This document shows, in pieces, positions 544 through 11,693 of a stretch of 24,652 nucleotides of DNA (the first letter of the stretch is position 1; the number at the start of each line of letters is the position of its first letter). The stretch lies in IMG/VR virus record IMGVR_UViG_2778261572_000014; one strand, 5' to 3'. The translations under genes were made by a program, and so were the position numbers. The DNA is from a virus. Taxonomy: Duplodnaviria > Heunggongvirae > Uroviricota > Caudoviricetes. The notes under the pieces are model-generated. The model was not told the origin of the DNA, ran no database searches, and worked only from the letters and a program-made list of their open reading frames with translations.

Positions 544-1539
544 TTATGGGCAATATCTGGACAACTCAGCCACAGGATTAAAGCGCACAGCATCCTGCAG
601 ATAATCCGGTGCAAAATGGGCATAAGTCATCGTCTGCTGAATAGTGCTATGCCCAAGTATTCTCTGCAAAGTGATGATATTCCCACCATTAATCATGAAG
701 TGAGTGGCAAAGGTATGCCGTAAAACATGTATCGACTGCCCTTCAGGAAGATCAGGCCTCACCTTTCTGATAGCAGCTCTGACAGCGGCATAACTTGGAT
801 AAATTAAACGACCAGTGGCCTTTGTTTTAATCATGCACTCCAGTTCTGACGATATAGGTATAACGCGACGCTTCCCATTTTTGGTTTCCATAAAAATGAC
901 TTTGCCGCTAATAACATGCTCCCCCTTGATATTTGCAACCTCACTCCATCTTCCACCTGTTGCCAGACACAACAAGACAGCTTTTAATTCATCACCAGAT
1001 AACAACTCCAGTAATCGTGGAATATCTTCATGATACAAATAAGCCATTTCAGGCTGTTTGATATTAAGTTTTTTCACATCATGAAACGGATTAGCCCCAG
1101 AATATTCCTCTGCGTCAATTAGTTTTGTGAAGAAACCACTCATCATTGCGCAATAACGATTAACCGTGGATTGTTTTATTCCGCGGTTAAGCAACAATAA
1201 CCGATAATTAATTATGTTCTTACGAGTAAGTTGGTCGCTGCGTGTAACATTAATACTCTCAAGATCACTAATGACCGCAGAAATACGCACTCGCTCCATC
1301 GCACCGTAAGGATGATTTTTCCCGTGGTATAGCCACCAACAATCCAGCAACTCCCTCAGCGAGCGCCGTTCTGTTGGCTTATCAACCCAGTCTTTGTCGT
1401 GGTAATGCTGCAATACATGACGCTCATACAAAACAGCCTCACCACGAGTATCAAATCGCCGCCTGAATCTTTTTCCTTCTGATCCAGCTGGCCGCACGTC
1501 CACACAGAATTTGCCATTAGCGAGCTTCTTAATCGACAT
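544..1539 (-). CDS. int: Tyrosine integrase, P2 Int family
   Basis: 331 aa from ATG 1539, which has GGAGGG 7 nt upstream; the ORF track's upstream ATG at 1575 lacks an SD. N-terminus MSIKKLANGKFCVDVRPAGSEGKRFRRRFD parallels P2 Int; C-terminal HVLRHTFATHFMINGGNIITLQRILGHSTIQQTMTYAHFAP carries the R..H-R-H..Y catalytic box. Confidence 0.9.
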   Translation of the reverse strand: MSIKKLANGKFCVDVRPAGSEGKRFRRRFDTRGEAVLYERHVLQHYHDKDWVDKPTERRSLRELLDCWWLYHGKNHPYGAMERVRISAVISDLESINVTRSDQLTRKNIINYRLLLLNRGIKQSTVNRYCAMMSGFFTKLIDAEEYSGANPFHDVKKLNIKQPEMAYLYHEDIPRLLELLSGDELKAVLLCLATGGRWSEVANIKGEHVISGKVIFMETKNGKRRVIPISSELECMIKTKATGRLIYPSYAAVRAAIRKVRPDLPEGQSIHVLRHTFATHFMINGGNIITLQRILGHSTIQQTMTYAHFAPDYLQDAVRFNPVAELSRYCP

Positions 1540-1605
1540 AAGGAAGCCCTCCAATGAAAACATCATCTTGATCACAGCTCTGGGAAATAAATGCCTGGTG
1601 AACCG

Positions 1606-1905
1606 TTAACCAGTCTTCTTGCCGGAGCGGGATGATTCCGCTTCGCCTTGCCCAATGTGTGCGAGAGCCGGTACAACCTGCCCGGCCTTGGGTTCAACTT
1701 CATCAAACAAAAACCAGTCGCGGTACTTACGGAACATGGGGGCTTTCAGAAGCTTTTTTGTTGACTCAAGGTTGGGTTCATTTCGTCCTTGCTCATATTG
1801 CCTTAATGCAGCAAGAGTAAGCCCAGTAATCTCTGCCATTTTTTCTTGTGTAAGCATTTCTGACTTCCGCATGATGCGAATTTTCATAGCTACGGTAGTT
1901 GACAT
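1606..1905 (-). CDS. C: Immunity repressor, P2 C family
   Basis: 99 aa, the same length as P2 C. MSTTVAMKIRIMRKSEMLTQEKMAEITGL... and C-terminal PALAHIGQGE...SGKKTG align with remembered P2 C (IVLMRKSEYL...PALAHFGQNE...SGQKTG). Divergent from cox as in P2. No SD before the ATG. Confidence 0.85.
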   Translation of the reverse strand: MSTTVAMKIRIMRKSEMLTQEKMAEITGLTLAALRQYEQGRNEPNLESTKKLLKAPMFRKYRDWFLFDEVEPKAGQVVPALAHIGQGEAESSRSGKKTG

Positions 1906-2013: not shown

Positions 2014-2439
2014 ATGCAAGAAAGCACTCAAAACGCGCCTGAGTCACTTTGCGGAACACGATGCGATCGCCTGTCAGAAATGCCAGAGGGGGTGCATCAA
2101 AAAACAGGACGCAAAGCACGTGAACGTGAAGAAATTCGACTTTCAGAAAATCCCTCGCATCTCCTGTCAAAAGAAGGATTTGCGATGTATATCGGAAAGA
2201 CCGTTGACGCCATCGTAAGCATGGCCAAAGCAGGAAAGCTACCTGCGGTGTATATGGCGGACCCTCTTAAACCAGGCGGAAACGCTGAACTCTACATCAA
2301 CAGAAAAGCGTGGGATGAAGCATGCGATCGCCTCATCGAAAACGCACCTCAGGAATGGCACGACTGGGAAAACCGTCTGTTTTTGTTTAAGCCAACAAGT
2401 GGCAGACGAAACAGAAACATCAGCGGTAAAGCAGCATAA
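2014..2439 (+). CDS. cox: Cox-like excisionase/transcriptional switch protein (start uncertain)
   Basis: ATG 2014 has GGAGGA 6 nt upstream. Segment FAMYIGKTVDAIVSMAKAGKLPAVYMADP resembles the P2 Cox HTH region. 141 aa is long for Cox (about 90 aa); internal ATGs at 2080 and 2185 are alternatives. Confidence 0.55.
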   Translation: MQESTQNAPESLCGTRCDRLSEMPEGVHQKTGRKAREREEIRLSENPSHLLSKEGFAMYIGKTVDAIVSMAKAGKLPAVYMADPLKPGGNAELYINRKAWDEACDRLIENAPQEWHDWENRLFLFKPTSGRRNRNISGKAA

Positions 2440-6458: not shown

Positions 6459-9281
6459 ATGACGGCAGAGTACATCAGGGACTGGCAACAACCGCGCCAC
6501 GCAGTGGGACGTGAAGGAACGGGGATCCCCGTTCCTGAATCTGCGCTTTCCTCCTGGCTGGATGCCTACCGGGCAGAGAACGAGCGCCGCCAGGAAATGG
6601 CTGATGCGGCGTTCTCCGCCACGCCGCTGGGCAACCTGATTAATAAAAGCCTGGATGCACAGGAAAAACAGGACAAAACCATCACACTGGCAGGAGACGC
6701 CAGAAAACAGGCACGCGGCGCGGTGGATGAAGCCATGGCCTCGCTGCGCCTGCTGCCGTCCTATCTGCGCGATCCGCTTATTCGCCACCTCTCCTTCCTG
6801 CGCAAAAAACAGGAAGTCGATCGCCGGAAAGGCAAAAAGAGCTGGCAGGCTGAACGCTACGCGCGCGGAACCCTGCGCAAAATATTCGAACGTCTGGATC
6901 GCACTGACGGACACTGGCTGACACCGGGTTATCGCTTCCTTGCCGGACGCGAACGCCTGGACGATTTGCTTTACCTGCCGCAGCTCAACAAACACCAGAT
7001 ACAGACGCTGGCCACCATGACGGCGGCGATGTTCAGCAGCACCTTCGAAAAACTCTGCGATGGCTTTGGCGCGACCGATGGCGAACTGACCATGGATGTA
7101 ACGCTGAAGGCGTATCAGATGCTGGCCCGCATGGCGTTACACCTGCACATCATGCCTCCACATTATGACGCACTGACAACAGATAAAGACCGGAGGAACG
7201 AACCGGACACGGAGCTGCTGCCGGGCGCAATCCTTCGCCTGACCTGTGCGGAATGGTGGAAACGCAAACTGTGGCTGTTACGTTGCGAGTGGAGAGAAGA
7301 ACAACTCCGCGCCGCCTGTCTGGTTTCCAGAAAAACATCACCCTATCTGAGCCAGGACGCGTTAAGCGAGTTTCGCGCACAGCGCGAGAAAACACGCGAT
7401 TTCCTGAAAAGTTTCATGCTGGAAAACGAAGACGGGTTCACGATTGATCTCGAGACAGTGTATTACGCGGGAGTAAGTAACCCGGTTCACCGTAAGGCAG
7501 AAATGATGGCCACCATGAAGGGGCTGGAACTTCTGGCCGAAGCCCGTGGCGACAAAGCGGTGTTTCTGACTGTCACCTGCCCGTCAAAATACCACGCCAC
7601 AACAGAGAACGGTCATCCGAATCCCAAATGGAACGGGGCCACCATGCGCGACTCCAGCGATTACCTGGTTAACACGTTTTTTGCAGCGGTCCGCAAGAAA
7701 CTGAACCGCGACGGCCTGCGCTGGTATGGCATCCGCACGGTGGAGCCTCACCATGACGGCACCGTGCACTGGCATATGATGGTCTTTGCTCATCCGGAAG
7801 AAATCGACACCATTGTGTCCCACACCCGCGATATTGCCATTCAGGAAGATCGTCACGAGCTGGGTGATGATATTACCCCACGCTTTAAGGCGGAGTACGT
7901 CGACGGCTCAAAAGGCACGCCAACCAGCTACATCGCCACCTACATCGGAAAGAACCTGGACAGCCGCGCCGTGGATGGCATCGACCCGAAAACGGGCAAG
8001 CCACGCGTTGACCACGAAACAGGTAAATCAATGGCCGAGAGCGTGGAGCGCGCCATCGGCTGGGCGCGCCTTCACCGGGTCCGCCAGTTCCAGTTCTTTG
8101 GCATCCCCTCCCGTCAGGTGTGGCGTGAACTCCGCCGCCTTGCCAGCCAGATGGCACGCAACCCGGAAGGCCCGCAACGGCTGAAGGATGACGCAATGGA
8201 TGCGGTACTCGCTGCCGCTGATGCCGGATGTTTTGCCACCTACATTGAAAAACAGGGTGGCGTACTTGTTCCGCGCAAGGACTACCTGATTCGCACAGCC
8301 TACGACCTCGCAGATGAGCTGAACGATTACGGCGAACAGAGTGTACAGATTTACGGGATCTGGTCGCCATTCATCGGGGAATCCTCCCGTGTGTGCACGC
8401 ATCCGGATAACTGGAAGCTGGTAAGACGTAAACCGGAAGCGGAAGACAGCGCCCGCGAAAATGGTTTTGACCTTCAGGGCGGCCCTGCCGCCCCTTGGAC
8501 TCGTGGCAATAACTGTCCCCGTGTACAGGAAACGGACAACAACGGGACAGAACAGCCGGAAGAACGGCCAGCACCGTGGCCGCAGCTCCCTGACGGCGTT
8601 GAAGTGAACGAATGGATGCGCTCACTGAAACGGCACGAACGCCGGGCGCTGATGCGTTCGCTTCGTGACAAACAGGCAAAAAACAGCAGTGATGAAATGC
8701 AGAGCTGGACACAGAGCCGCAAACAGCAGCGGCCTTTGCCTGATAACCACGAATTACTCGCTAAAGAATGGCGGGAGTCTGCCGAATCTCTCGGCCTGCA
8801 TATCGGTGAACAGCAGATGCAGCACCTGTTACGGGGCGGCAGCCTGTACGTTGACGGCAGCATCATTGCACCGCAGGGATTTGAAATTGTACGCAAACCG
8901 GATACCCGCCCGGACAGCCGAATCACGCAGCTCTGGCAGCGCCTGAGCCGTAATCACGGCGTAAGCAGCACGGAGATCCGCCATAACCCGGTCGCCGGCT
9001 ATCTGGAACAGCTGGGGATATCAGACCCCGAAGCCGCCGCACGCCTGGCATCCACACTTCAGCAGGACCAGAACACCATGAAAACCCCCGTTACCGTGCT
9101 TTCTGACATGCTGCGCGCCATCCGTGACGCAGAGCACGCACAGAGAATCAGTGAAACCACTGAACGCGCCCGCCGCAAAGCAGACCTGCTGCGGGGTAGC
9201 CTGACCAGTGGAAACAAAAAACAGACAGAAACGGGATTCATAAAACCCGTAAATGAGCAAAAAACGCGCCGCGATATATGA
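6459..9281 (+). CDS. A: Rolling-circle replication initiator endonuclease, P2 gpA family
   Basis: 940 aa. Contains TVTCPSKYH and RTVEPHHDGTVHWHMMVF (HUH-type motif), followed by YIATYIGKN, as in P2 A (LTAPSKYH, RVVEPHHDGTPHWHMMLF). C-terminal third is long and low-complexity. Confidence 0.9.
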   Translation: MTAEYIRDWQQPRHAVGREGTGIPVPESALSSWLDAYRAENERRQEMADAAFSATPLGNLINKSLDAQEKQDKTITLAGDARKQARGAVDEAMASLRLLPSYLRDPLIRHLSFLRKKQEVDRRKGKKSWQAERYARGTLRKIFERLDRTDGHWLTPGYRFLAGRERLDDLLYLPQLNKHQIQTLATMTAAMFSSTFEKLCDGFGATDGELTMDVTLKAYQMLARMALHLHIMPPHYDALTTDKDRRNEPDTELLPGAILRLTCAEWWKRKLWLLRCEWREEQLRAACLVSRKTSPYLSQDALSEFRAQREKTRDFLKSFMLENEDGFTIDLETVYYAGVSNPVHRKAEMMATMKGLELLAEARGDKAVFLTVTCPSKYHATTENGHPNPKWNGATMRDSSDYLVNTFFAAVRKKLNRDGLRWYGIRTVEPHHDGTVHWHMMVFAHPEEIDTIVSHTRDIAIQEDRHELGDDITPRFKAEYVDGSKGTPTSYIATYIGKNLDSRAVDGIDPKTGKPRVDHETGKSMAESVERAIGWARLHRVRQFQFFGIPSRQVWRELRRLASQMARNPEGPQRLKDDAMDAVLAAADAGCFATYIEKQGGVLVPRKDYLIRTAYDLADELNDYGEQSVQIYGIWSPFIGESSRVCTHPDNWKLVRRKPEAEDSARENGFDLQGGPAAPWTRGNNCPRVQETDNNGTEQPEERPAPWPQLPDGVEVNEWMRSLKRHERRALMRSLRDKQAKNSSDEMQSWTQSRKQQRPLPDNHELLAKEWRESAESLGLHIGEQQMQHLLRGGSLYVDGSIIAPQGFEIVRKPDTRPDSRITQLWQRLSRNHGVSSTEIRHNPVAGYLEQLGISDPEAAARLASTLQQDQNTMKTPVTVLSDMLRAIRDAEHAQRISETTERARRKADLLRGSLTSGNKKQTETGFIKPVNEQKTRRDI

Positions 9282-9329
9282 AGCGCGCATAAAACAGGCA
9301 AAAACGGGATTTAAAAACCCCGTAAACGA
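9229..9329. repeat. Two 28-bp direct repeats (24/28 identical), each with internal ACGGG...CCCGT dyad; candidate parC-like centromere/operator
   Basis: R1 9229-9256 AAACGGGATTCATAAAACCCGTAAATGA and R2 9302-9329 AAACGGGATTTAAAAACCCCGTAAACGA, 73 bp apart, directly upstream of parM. R1 overlaps the last codons of A. Confidence 0.45.
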
Positions 9330-9357
9330 TTAATTAATCAACATAAGGAAAATCGAC

Positions 9358-10317
9358 ATGAAAATTTGTATCGACGACGGCTCCACCAACATCAAGCTGG
9401 CATGGACTGAGAACGGCGAACGCCGCAACGCCATCAGCCCGAACAGCTTCAAATCGGAATGGTCTGCGCCGTTCGGTGGCATACAGCCCGCGAACTACAT
9501 GCTTGATGGCGTGCGCTATGGTTTTGATCCGGTCAGCGATCGCTTTGTCCAGACGACCGACACGCAATACCAGTACAGCGATGTGAATGTAATTGCCATT
9601 CATCACGCGCTGGTCAAATCAGGCATCACGCCACAGGAGGTGGATGTGGTTGTCACCCTGCCACTGAGCGAGTATTTCGACACAAACGCACAGCCGGACA
9701 TGGCCAACATCAACCGCAAAAAAGCAAACGTCATGCGCCCGGTGGCGTACCAAAACGGAAAAGCATTCACTATCCGTAACGTACGGGTTATGCCTGAATC
9801 CATTCCGGCTGGTTTTAAAGCACTGGCTGACATGAGTCCGTTTGAATCCCTGCTGATTGTGGATTTAGGCGGAACCACGCTGGATGTGGCAAAGGTTCAG
9901 GGGCAACTGGCAGGTATCAGCCAGGTGTTTTGCGATCCACACGTAGGCGTTTCCCTGATGGCCGATGCCGTACTGTCGGTGATGGCCACTAACGGTATGC
10001 GTACCAGTCACCACATCGCCAATACCATTATCGAACATCGCCATGATGAAGCCTGGCTGCGCCAGCACATCCACAATGACGCGCATTACGCCAGCCTGAT
10101 GGCGGTTATTCGTGAAAAGGAAGAAACACTGAAACAACGCGTGATCCGCGCGCTGGCGGGTTTTTCGGGTTACGGGCGGGTGATGGTTGTCGGTGGTGGG
10201 GCGGAGATTGTGGCACCCGCTATCCGCGAAGCCTGCGGAGTTAATGCGACTTTCATCACGGACGGGGTGCCACAGTTTGCTCTGGTTAATGGGCTGTACG
10301 CAATGGACAAGGAGTAA
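9358..10317 (+). CDS. parM: ParM/StbA-family actin-like segregation ATPase
   Basis: 319 aa, ATG 9358 with AAGGAA upstream. MKICIDDGSTNIKLAW..., YSDVNVIAIHHAL, VMPESIPAG, LIVDLGGTTLD, VMVVGGGAE, LVNGLY run in register with remembered plasmid R1 ParM (MLVFIDDGSTNIKLQW..., LIIDLGGTTLD, VMVIGGGAE, LVNGMY). Confidence 0.85.
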   Translation: MKICIDDGSTNIKLAWTENGERRNAISPNSFKSEWSAPFGGIQPANYMLDGVRYGFDPVSDRFVQTTDTQYQYSDVNVIAIHHALVKSGITPQEVDVVVTLPLSEYFDTNAQPDMANINRKKANVMRPVAYQNGKAFTIRNVRVMPESIPAGFKALADMSPFESLLIVDLGGTTLDVAKVQGQLAGISQVFCDPHVGVSLMADAVLSVMATNGMRTSHHIANTIIEHRHDEAWLRQHIHNDAHYASLMAVIREKEETLKQRVIRALAGFSGYGRVMVVGGGAEIVAPAIREACGVNATFITDGVPQFALVNGLYAMDKE

Positions 10318-10321
10318 ACCA

Positions 10322-10633
10322 ATGACGACACCAACCAGACGGATAAGTTTCTATCTGAAGCCCGCCGCCGTCAAGAACGAAGGTGAAGCATGCGCCTGGC
10401 TGGACAGCCTTACACCAGAAGCTCGCAAAAGCGGCCAACGCGTGGCTTTTCTGGCCGGGCTGGCACTTCTGAAAATGAATCCGGCAGAGGCTTACCGACT
10501 GGCTGCATGGGCTGATGATGAGGCGTTATCAGTGACACAAACCAGGGCAGAACACCACATGTTACAGCCAGCGCCCACCGCACAGATAACCAGCCAGCTA
10601 GCCGGAAATATCCGGGCGTTATTTCCTGAATAA
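10322..10633 (+). CDS. parR: ParR-like centromere-binding adaptor (ribbon-helix-helix)
   Basis: 103 aa, ATG 10322, 4 nt after the parM stop, AAGGAG upstream. RRISFYLKPAAV...LDSLTPEARKSGQRVAFLAGLALL...IRALFPE parallels R1 ParR (RRTIAFKLNPDV...LDSIPQGERSRLNRAALTAGLALY...LRSLFPKE). Confidence 0.7.
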   Translation: MTTPTRRISFYLKPAAVKNEGEACAWLDSLTPEARKSGQRVAFLAGLALLKMNPAEAYRLAAWADDEALSVTQTRAEHHMLQPAPTAQITSQLAGNIRALFPE

Positions 10634-10639
10634 CACAAC

Positions 10640-10661
10640 ATCAGGGCGAGTTCGCCCTGAT
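10640..10661. promoter_or_regulatory. Perfect 22-bp palindrome between parR and the PP-loop gene
   Basis: ATCAGGGCGA-GT-TCGCCCTGAT (9-bp arms), no U-tract; followed 12 bp later by AAAGGAGG and the GTG start of the next gene. Confidence 0.4.
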
Positions 10662-10685
10662 AACACTATCCAAAGGAGGCAAACA

Positions 10686-11693
10686 GTGAGCATCATTCAG
10701 CGCTGCCGAGCAGAAAACACTTTTAATTTGGTTTCCATGTCTGGCGGGAAAGACTCACTGGCGCAATGTTTGTATGCCATAGAAAACGATATACAGCATG
10801 AGCGAGTGTTTGCTGATACGGGACACGAACACCCACAAACGATGGAGTACCTTGACTACCTGGAACAAAAGCTGGGCCCAATTCGTCGCGTAAAAGCCGA
10901 CTTCACTCGCCAGATAGAAGGTAAGCGCAAATTCATTGCTGAAAAATGGCCAGTATCTCTTGTTGCAGAGTGCGGAATGACGCCTGATGAAGCAGCGGAA
11001 CGTGTTGCTCGTGCGCTGGAAATCCTCCACCCAACCGGAAATCCATTTCTTGACCTGTGCATGTGGAAAGGTCGTTTCCCGAGCACTAAAGCGCGGTTCT
11101 GTACATTCGAACTGAAACACGAACCAGTGCGCACTCAGGTGGTGCAACCTGCGCTTGATGAATATGACGAAGTTATCTCCTGGCAGGGCGTGCGTGCTCA
11201 GGAATCGCCATCGAGGGCACGCCTGCAAGTGTGGGTGGAGGATGCGGACAATACCCCCGGATTGCATGTCTATCGTCCGATTCTCAACTGGCTACATGAG
11301 GATGTTTTCGCTATTGCCAGGCGTCACGGGATTAAACCCAACCCACTCTACCAACAAGGATGCAGCCGCGTTGGGTGTATGCCATGCATTCATGCCAGAA
11401 AATCTGAACTGGCGGAAATTTTTCAGCGCTGGCCAGAGGAAATCGCCAGAGTGGCAGAGTGGGAACGATTAGTTGCAGCCTGCTCTCGCCGCGGCAACTC
11501 AACGTTTTTCCCGTCAACTCATGACCCGCGCCGGGCAGAATGTCGCATAGATGTTGTTACCGTAGACAGCTACGGAATCGAAACCTATCGCGACTGGGCA
11601 ATGACAACCCGGGGCGGCGCTCAATTTGACCTGCTGGCGAGCACGAACGATAAGGCGGTGTGCAACAGTGTTTATGCGGGAGTATGCGAATGA
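10686..11693 (+). CDS. PAPS-reductase-family PP-loop ATP pyrophosphatase-like protein (DndC/CysH-like fold), function unknown
   Basis: 335 aa. GTG start 10686 with GGAGG 6 nt upstream; no upstream in-frame ATG. N-terminal VSMSGGKDS PP-loop, FADTGHEHPQT, WQGVRAQESPSRA, and C-terminal cysteine cluster CSRVGCMPC. Confidence 0.8.
   Translation: MSIIQRCRAENTFNLVSMSGGKDSLAQCLYAIENDIQHERVFADTGHEHPQTMEYLDYLEQKLGPIRRVKADFTRQIEGKRKFIAEKWPVSLVAECGMTPDEAAERVARALEILHPTGNPFLDLCMWKGRFPSTKARFCTFELKHEPVRTQVVQPALDEYDEVISWQGVRAQESPSRARLQVWVEDADNTPGLHVYRPILNWLHEDVFAIARRHGIKPNPLYQQGCSRVGCMPCIHARKSELAEIFQRWPEEIARVAEWERLVAACSRRGNSTFFPSTHDPRRAECRIDVVTVDSYGIETYRDWAMTTRGGAQFDLLASTNDKAVCNSVYAGVCE

Follow-up and report, generated by a model that had tools for sequence, protein, structure and literature searches.

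A probable two-box, split parC centromere at the left end of the parMR cassette of a P88-type, P2-family prophage

In the type II partition systems of plasmids R1 and R100, the parC centromere consists of two sets of five tandem 11-bp direct iterons (AAAACCC-like) with a 39-bp core harboring the promoter, for a total of 159 bp (Dam and Gerdes, 1994; PMC2241845). The split parC of R1 is bound as two separate ParR clusters, and its DNA is strongly curved (PMC2241845). Regarding phages, Rousset et al. (2022; PMC9122126) report that about one quarter of the P2-like phages of Escherichia coli carry a "putative plasmid partitioning system" in the hotspot between gpA and gpQ, and plasmid maintenance was speculated there. 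The same cassette is found at the same locus in the 24.6-kb window considered here (i.e., the whole stretch of DNA analyzed, IMG/VR record IMGVR_UViG_2778261572_000014), which is a P2-family prophage of the P88/Xuanwuvirus type. Its parMR cassette lies in the gpA-gpQ cargo hotspot, in the order gpA, parM, parR, an open reading frame (ORF) resembling PAPS reductase, and portal. Two repeats at the junction between the replication gene A and parM are likely to be the two-box, split parC centromere of this type II ParMRC cassette, a view favored by their linkage to parMR, their conserved geometry, the pairing of box type with a ParR strand, and the homology of ParM and ParR to plasmid proteins. 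As in other type II systems, an actin-like ATPase ParM, a ParR encoded directly downstream with a conserved C-terminal tail, and a repeated site upstream of parM can all be found.

The two repeat copies, AAACGGGATTCATAAAACCCGTAAATGA at 9229-9256 and AAACGGGATTTAAAAACCCCGTAAACGA at 9302-9329, match at 24 of 28 positions, with 73 bp from one start to the next, just as the first-pass annotation had read them, and the copy placed by it in the last codons of A does lie there, the stop codon TGA being located between the copies. The full repeat unit is longer and reaches 42 nt, with 83% identity between its two occurrences (Table 1). The internal dyad, previously given as 5 bp, is present but was understated: the real symmetry of each copy is a 20-bp near-palindrome (hereafter, a box) with 8-bp arms and the consensus ACGGGATT-N4-AATCCCGT, of which the boxes of the window are minor variants with one mismatch each in the right arm (AAaCCC and AAcCCC). 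The description of the repeats as iteron-like is loosely apt, but what can be seen is two dyad-symmetric boxes and no tandem array of direct iterons. A degenerate repeat pattern did not reveal a third copy in the window (0.00 expected from 100 dinucleotide-preserving shuffles), and the core GGGATT-N4-AATCCC, with at most two mismatches, was found in the window only at 9233 and 9306. Relative to the ATG of parM, the boxes are at about -125 and -52. R1-like 11-bp A-tract iterons (AAAAC-N) were also considered and rejected: no consistent 11-bp unit could be defined beyond the two boxes, and the phasing was not significant in two diverged lineages.

Natural variants place the repeats at the left end of the parMR cassette: the boxes track parMR and not the A gene. 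The prophages of E. coli SE11 and Ceylon31 have a P88-type A gene with other cargo between A and portal, and both boxes are absent from them; homology to the window ends at ~9187 in SE11 and ~9169 in Ceylon31, where the A genes finish in unrelated short tails. Conversely, in NZ_CP055048 (strain SWHEFF_58), which has a different A gene and an extra ORF, homology to the window starts at ~9216, i.e., where repeat unit 1 begins, and parMR is present after this junction together with both boxes, the remnant there being annotated as a pseudo "DNA replication protein". Further IMG/VR loci display other upstream sequences joined directly ahead of box 1. The proposal of the first-pass annotation that the repeats belong to a cassette inserted at the 3' end of A is borne out by these junctions: same-A prophages devoid of parMR lack the boxes, unrelated-A prophages with parMR have them, and homology begins at or just before the first copy. 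The cassette abuts the 3' end of A and supplies its last ~22 codons. Iterons of a replication origin are inherited with the replication gene, and the boxes, which follow parMR across differing A genes, are a feature neither of A nor of an origin.

Natural variation in the tail of A leads in the same direction. Among 124 P88-like junctions gathered from a pattern scan of IMG/VR and from other fetched loci, the C-terminal tail of A is frameshifted in several natural copies (~10 of the 124; 9176-9281 in the window) with the boxes kept. The frameshifted tails differ much in sequence and in length, e.g., one finishing in LLRWPDQRKQKTDRNGIHKSRK directly before its stop codon, or a read-through version ending past box 2, and in other loci of the set the central part of box 1 carries non-synonymous changes. 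Because the boxes persist where the tail of A is frameshifted or altered, the constraint at box 1 is, on the evidence of these alleles, exerted on the DNA and not on the A protein, of which the last ~22-25 of 940 residues appear dispensable. Elsewhere in A, a stretch of 43-66 bp at 8481-8546, which includes GGCGGCCCTGCCGCCCCTTGGACTCGTGGCAATAACTGTCCCCGTGTAC, shows 82-93% identity to its counterparts in Fels-2, SopEPhi, SEN8, Yersinia, Cartapus, and dozens of Klebsiella P2-like phages, the A genes of which are otherwise too diverged for a blastn alignment; this stretch probably represents the region of the origin or nick site, which in P2-family phages is located within A.

Both boxes are found in 122 of the 124 loci, with a spacing of 73 bp in 115 of them, 72 bp in five, and 74 bp in two, and the spacer sequence varies in some relatives. 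The commonest box forms are perfect palindromes, namely ACGGGATT-CACA-AATCCCGT (60 loci) and ACGGGATT-TCAG-AATCCCGT (61 loci). Over 40 distinct box variants, G3, G4, G5, A14, C16, and C17 are invariant, which sets the invariant GGG and CC(C) one helical turn apart. The A-parM junction of the window is 95-97% identical to those of phages P88, 520873, Shae_phiSM, and others, and the 3' end of A together with the 5' end of parM (8700-9900) is present in 1372 of 5426 complete E. coli genomes, nearly always on the chromosome. Diverged parMR cassettes can also be found between gpA and portal, in a first Hafnia lineage (ParR 75% identical), a second Hafnia lineage (ParM 62%), and Plesiomonas (ParM 63%). 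All three display exactly two GGG-N10-CCC boxes, 72-73 bp apart and at about -125 and -52 from the ATG of parM; the boxes are kept where spacers and flanks have diverged, and the location of box 1 within the last codons of A recurs in Plesiomonas and in the first Hafnia lineage.

With regard to the proteins, ParM shows full-length matches to the Pfam StbA_N domain (E = 1.5e-81) and the ParM C-terminal domain (1.5e-68), and matches the structure of R1 ParM (1MWK) with E = 2.6e-92. Its identity to R100 ParM is 46.5%, no plasmid ParM exceeds ~52%, and the ratio of non-synonymous to synonymous substitution rates (dN/dS) of about 0.10 for parM reveals purifying selection. A search of the PDB with the single ParR sequence gave no match, and the solved ParR of pB171 (2JD3) was reached by the family profile only (E = 3.6e-15). 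The alignment of ParR with R100 ParR runs from end to end (24% identity) and takes in the N-terminal strand as well as the C-terminal end, where the invariant NI..LFPE is aligned with the R100 C-terminus KKNAMKLIN; in R1 ParR, the C-terminal end is the ParM-binding tail (PMC5016525). The N-terminal ~65 residues are conserved, including TRRISFYLKP and AFLAGLAL, and alleles down to ~50% identity diverge only in a hypervariable linker (residues ~66-95; 10517-10606 in the window). Several classes of linker alleles can be found among prophages in which parM and the upstream boxes are 95-98% identical and in which the N-terminal domain and the last eight residues of ParR are fixed, which suggests recombination or diversifying selection on the linker. 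A ParR homologue with 40% identity (P0081) proved to be a frameshifted copy; the contig P0029 begins inside parM and offers no upstream region to compare. A scan of genome contigs with ParM gave just three near-identical loci, and thus no diversity. A ParM 97% identical to that of the E. coli prophages occurs on a contig labeled as the Gram-positive Vagococcus sp. WN89Y, which is most likely an assembly contamination with enterobacterial DNA.

All lineages with these boxes have in common the ParR N-terminal strand TRR[I/V]SFYL. In contrast, the cassettes of Serratia and Enterobacter (ParM 54-58% identical), which occupy the same P2-like hotspot, have the strand NRKISFYL and different upstream repeats. 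None of these boxes was found in R100, an IncL/M plasmid, an IncF plasmid, or phage D6. The type of box thus goes with the recognition strand of ParR. In Serratia and Enterobacter (loci L139 and L140; 3383-3450), an inverted repeat of 14-20 nt, GGGAAC.A.ATAGAAAAAT / ATTTTTCT.TTTC..., with 26-28 nt between its arms, is presumably the cognate site of the NRKISFYL-type ParR.

This pairing bears on the possibility that the boxes bind another protein and are merely next to parMR, whether A itself (as an origin accessory or iteron), the phage proteins Cox, C, or Ogr, or a host factor. Such a role would suit a box located inside A, since the P2-family origin is also inside A; 20-bp dyad sites are appropriate for many dimeric regulators, and both Cox and a C-type repressor are encoded in the window. 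It is nonetheless quite improbable: the boxes are absent with the same A when parMR is missing and present with an unrelated A when parMR is there, and their type changes along with the N-terminal strand of ParR. The likelier origin region, conserved across Fels-2-like, 186-like, and Klebsiella P2-like phages, is the stretch at 8481-8546, ~700 bp upstream, and the window, its early control region included, contains no further copy of the box.

The first-pass annotation had taken the repeats for a parC centromere/operator bracketing the promoter of parM, in the manner of R1. The centromere part of this claim fits the position upstream of parM, the two-box geometry kept across lineages, and the homology of ParR, but the operator part is not supported. 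A consensus scan detected no sigma-70-like promoter at 9000-10800, and a relaxed scan yielded no candidate between the boxes, either in the window or in relatives, whereas the same relaxed scan recovers a promoter-like match, TTGATT-16-TAAACT, in the core of R100 parC; a promoter in the core between the repeat sets, as in R1-type sites, was thus not found in the window. A promoter lying over box 2 (TTTAAA-17-ATTAAT) was rejected, as key -10 positions are absent and its -35 element is not conserved in the commonest variant (TTTCAG). Considering that no promoter is found at the boxes and that no + strand terminator is found between A and parM, parMR is probably co-transcribed with A by read-through from the early operon, and it would then be expressed on infection or induction and not in the repressed lysogen.

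The dyad symmetry of the boxes could also point to RNA hairpins, acting either as terminators of leftward transcription that shield A from antisense transcription of the cargo or as + strand stem-loops that stabilize or process the A-parM mRNA. Box 2 is terminator-like on the - strand, where an 8-bp stem with a 4-nt loop is followed by TTTTTGCC and folds at -9.8 kcal/mol (z = -2.6); the A-run ahead of each box on the + strand belongs to the repeat unit, and the dyad is retained in 89% of cells. However, the single-strand folds are weak overall, ranging from -6 to -10 kcal/mol and having stems of 5 bp and loops of 10 nt; in the window, all but one of the four strand/box combinations lie at only -6.3 to -6.7 kcal/mol, and in Plesiomonas the stems are down to 3-4 bp, yet GGG-N10-CCC and a 72-bp box spacing are kept. 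Pair counting gives four double-sided changes against 34 unpaired cells, i.e., hardly any compensatory change, and where only one side of a pair has changed, the strand on which the change is compatible with wobble pairing differs between variants. Since double-sided changes are few in comparison with unpaired cells and GGG, A14, and CC are invariant, it is, by these counts, sequence rather than pairing that is conserved in the boxes. No U-tract follows the hairpins on the + strand, no intrinsic terminator was found on that strand (only box 2 scores, on the - strand), and covariation is negligible. There is no leftward gene directly downstream, parM, parR, and the PAPS-reductase-like ORF all being rightward, and a terminator role leaves the fixed 73-bp spacing unexplained, so that RNA hairpins are a very remote prospect.

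At the DNA level, 9216-9335 has the strongest 10-11 bp phasing of A/T tracts in the window, ranking first of 4907 segments of 120 bp, and the observed power is reached by none of 2000 shuffles. Phasing of A/T tracts is also seen in R100 parC, and this region of the window is probably intrinsically curved.

Table 1. Coordinates of the proposed parC region, the parMR cassette, and other features of the window.
Feature	Position	Strand	Remarks
Integrase	544-1575	-	
C-type repressor	1606-1905	-	
Cox	2014-2439	+	early genes after it
Gene A, P2 gpA-type replication endonuclease, 940 aa	6459-9281	+	PF05840, E = 5.8e-132
Repeat unit 1, 42 nt	9215-9256	+	reference copy; holds box 1; within last codons of A
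Proposed parC region, whole	9216-9335		A/T tracts phased 10-11 bp
Box 1, 20-bp near-palindrome ACGGGATTCATAAAACCCGT	9231-9250		GGG 9233-9235, CCC 9246-9248; proposed ParR-binding site
Spacer between repeat units	9257-9287	+	A stop TGA 9279-9281; GC-rich CGCGCC-N-GCGCGC
Repeat unit 2, 42 nt	9288-9329	+	holds box 2; A-parM intergenic
Box 2, 20-bp near-palindrome ACGGGATTTAAAAACCCCGT	9304-9323		GGG 9306-9308; proposed ParR-binding site
Shine-Dalgarno AAGGA of parM	9346-9350		
parM, actin-like segregation ATPase, 319 aa	9358-10317	+	Pfam domains, R1 ParM structure match, dN/dS
parR, predicted centromere-binding adaptor, 103 aa	10322-10633	+	PF10784, 6e-24; pB171 ParR profile match
Hairpin, perfect 10-bp arms, ATCAGGGCGA-GT-TCGCCCTGAT	10640-10661		7 nt past the parR stop
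ORF with PAPS-reductase domain	10686-11693	+	domain match

From the anatomy of the site, its linkage to parMR, its conserved geometry, and the homology of ParM and ParR, we infer ParR binding, its stoichiometry, looping, and the time of expression as follows. The N-terminal domain of ParR, by homology to 2JD3 alone, would be of the ribbon-helix-helix (RHH) type, and RHH dimers would occupy the half-sites of each box, probably in the form of a dimer of dimers. The 73-bp spacing, i.e., seven helical turns, would set both boxes on one face of the A-tract-curved DNA, and the two ParR clusters could then join in one U-shaped or looped complex, as with the split parC of R1. The ParR C-terminal tails (NI..LFPE) clustered in this way may capture the growing end of ParM filaments, which would drive sister copies of the circular phage genome away from each other. 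The site probably does not enclose a promoter of its own, and the system would operate on phage circles that are free, replicating, or yet to be integrated. With box 1 located within the last codons of A, the cassette would also provide A with a dispensable C-terminal tail.

Several observations weigh against a centromere. Two boxes are few in comparison with the ten iterons of R1, and ~12 ParR dimers make up one turn of the ParR helix (PMC5016525), so that a complex of four dimers may fall short if ParR does not also spread along the A-tract DNA that separates the boxes. Direct repeats are the stated targets of characterized ParR proteins (PMC9426499), and each box here is internally dyad-symmetric. 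The AlphaFold2 model of the ParR monomer has a mean confidence (pLDDT) of 56, with helices predicted but the N-terminal strand not formed, and in the loci of Plesiomonas and the second Hafnia lineage the phasing of A/T tracts does not reach significance. Natural variants depart from the two-box arrangement: the IMG/VR locus L116 has a precise 73-bp deletion between the repeat units, which leaves one hybrid box ~130 bp upstream of an intact parM (319 aa) and parR (103 aa), A ending at a new TAA, and the locus L039 has box 2 only, with unrelated DNA up to that box. Linkage to the cassette is also expected of any other regulatory element internal to it. Moreover, among close E. coli copies, which are 95-99% identical, the boxes are no more conserved than their flanks; the 94 unique E. 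coli-type upstream regions are too shallow for per-column footprinting, and because these copies are too alike, the case for conservation rests on the three diverged lineages. Least probable of all is a scar without function, left at the junction of the cassette by duplication or recombination and kept by linkage and recent ancestry, which would agree with the uniformity of the E. coli copies and with a natural inter-repeat deletion that left parMR intact, but which hardly accounts for three diverged lineages keeping two boxes, the invariant GGG/CCC, and the 72-73 bp spacing despite diverged flanks, for both boxes being held by nearly all loci although the arrangement is prone to recombination, or for mostly perfect palindromes, which are not expected to survive in a decaying scar.

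Regarding the role of such a centromere, AlpAC and its site alpS in prophage CGP3 of Corynebacterium glutamicum were reported to be necessary for efficient viral DNA replication and transport, and not for plasmid inheritance (PMC4446434, PMC5539076). By analogy, AlpAC is a plausible model for ParMRC in a P2-like phage. A bolder view would be that the cassette does not serve plasmid maintenance at all, and that ParMRC, its minimal two-box centromere joined to the end of the replication gene and transcribed along with it, instead separates and positions replicating phage circles during infection or induction, as AlpAC would for CGP3, constitutes a weapon of competition or incompatibility against incoming replicons with cognate boxes, or pulls on the host chromosome when derepressed. 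It can be envisaged by analogy but seems unlikely; the weapon option is suggested by the fact that the cassette occupies the anti-phage cargo hotspot of P2 and is found integrated in roughly one of every four E. coli chromosomes.

Some records place the cassette outside the chromosome. NZ_CP148288.1, a 34,461-bp circle filed as an E. coli "plasmid", is a complete P88-like phage (int, C, cox, A, parMR, and structural genes) in which a gene for a Hok/Gef-family toxin adjoins ogr; it supports an extrachromosomal state only anecdotally, and an excised replicative form is equally possible. P88-like prophage DNA including A and parMR is also found inside the conjugative IncC KPC plasmid pC-Ec2-KPC (NZ_MK439959.1) and in several very large "plasmid" records of PLSDB.

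On the other side of the cassette, the hairpin downstream of parR has no T-run after it on the + strand and a terminator-like score only on the - strand, and it may be the right-hand end of the parMR cassette or of its transcript. The ORF with the PAPS-reductase domain matches the PADLOC models SspD (5.5e-25), BrxP, and DndC, and may be a cargo gene related to defense or DNA modification; it is swapped for other genes in relatives that still have parMR. Neither ParM nor ParR matched a defense system in PADLOC. Portal and terminase are located downstream of this ORF, on the - strand.

The cassette itself was already known, and in the searched passages of Rousset et al. (2022; PMC9122126) no description was found of the cis site, the two-box architecture, or the overlap with the 3' end of A; literature searches returned no description of this site either, other papers merely listing the annotation of the cassette. 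What is new is the delineation of the probable centromere, with its two dyad boxes at a fixed spacing, its apparent lack of an own promoter, and its overlap with the coding end of A. This adds usefully, if incrementally, to what was known, and the architecture differs from that of R1 in some respects. The prophage cassette is carried by roughly one in four sequenced E. coli genomes, the O157:H7 and ST131 lineages among them (PMC9122126), and the probable centromere gives a handle for testing the role of a plasmid segregation machine in an integrating phage. Functions in cis and in trans can be told apart with point mutations in the boxes, and a 115-bp fragment can be used in assays of ParR binding, plasmid stabilization, incompatibility, and capture of ParM filaments. 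As a natural minimal split centromere, it bears on the smallest number of ParR dimers able to hold a ParM filament, and the locus illustrates how a hotspot cassette overwrites the dispensable 3' end of an essential phage gene.

Compared with known systems, AlpAC/alpS has in common with this locus a prophage-encoded actin-like filament former, a DNA-binding adaptor, and cis sites, but its filament former is of another actin-like family, its adaptor is different, and neither phage nor host is related; it is likened here by description. In the pSK41 parC (Schumacher, 2007, as cited in PMC5016525 and PMC9426499), a 20-bp unit with two half-sites of ~10 bp is bound by a ParR dimer of dimers, as proposed for the boxes, although the repeats there are four, contiguous, and tandem, on a Gram-positive plasmid, the ParR of which has no detectable sequence similarity. 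The parC1/ParR system of pB171 provides the closest solved ParR homologue (2JD3), and its ParR is reported to bind just two short repeats upstream of parM (Ringgaard, 2007, as cited in PMC9426499), a precedent for a centromere/operator with two sites; these are 10-bp direct repeats in a double par locus, unlike the palindromic boxes located 73 bp apart in a prophage. With regard to R1 and R100, R100 parC read for comparison shows 5 + 5 iterons, an array that the window does not display, having only two 20-bp dyad boxes with no recognizable promoter between them and a first box that overlaps the coding end of the replication gene. What the sites have in common is a location directly upstream of parM-parR, A-tract-rich and helically phased DNA, and, if the boxes are bound as proposed, two ParR-binding parts with unbound DNA between them.

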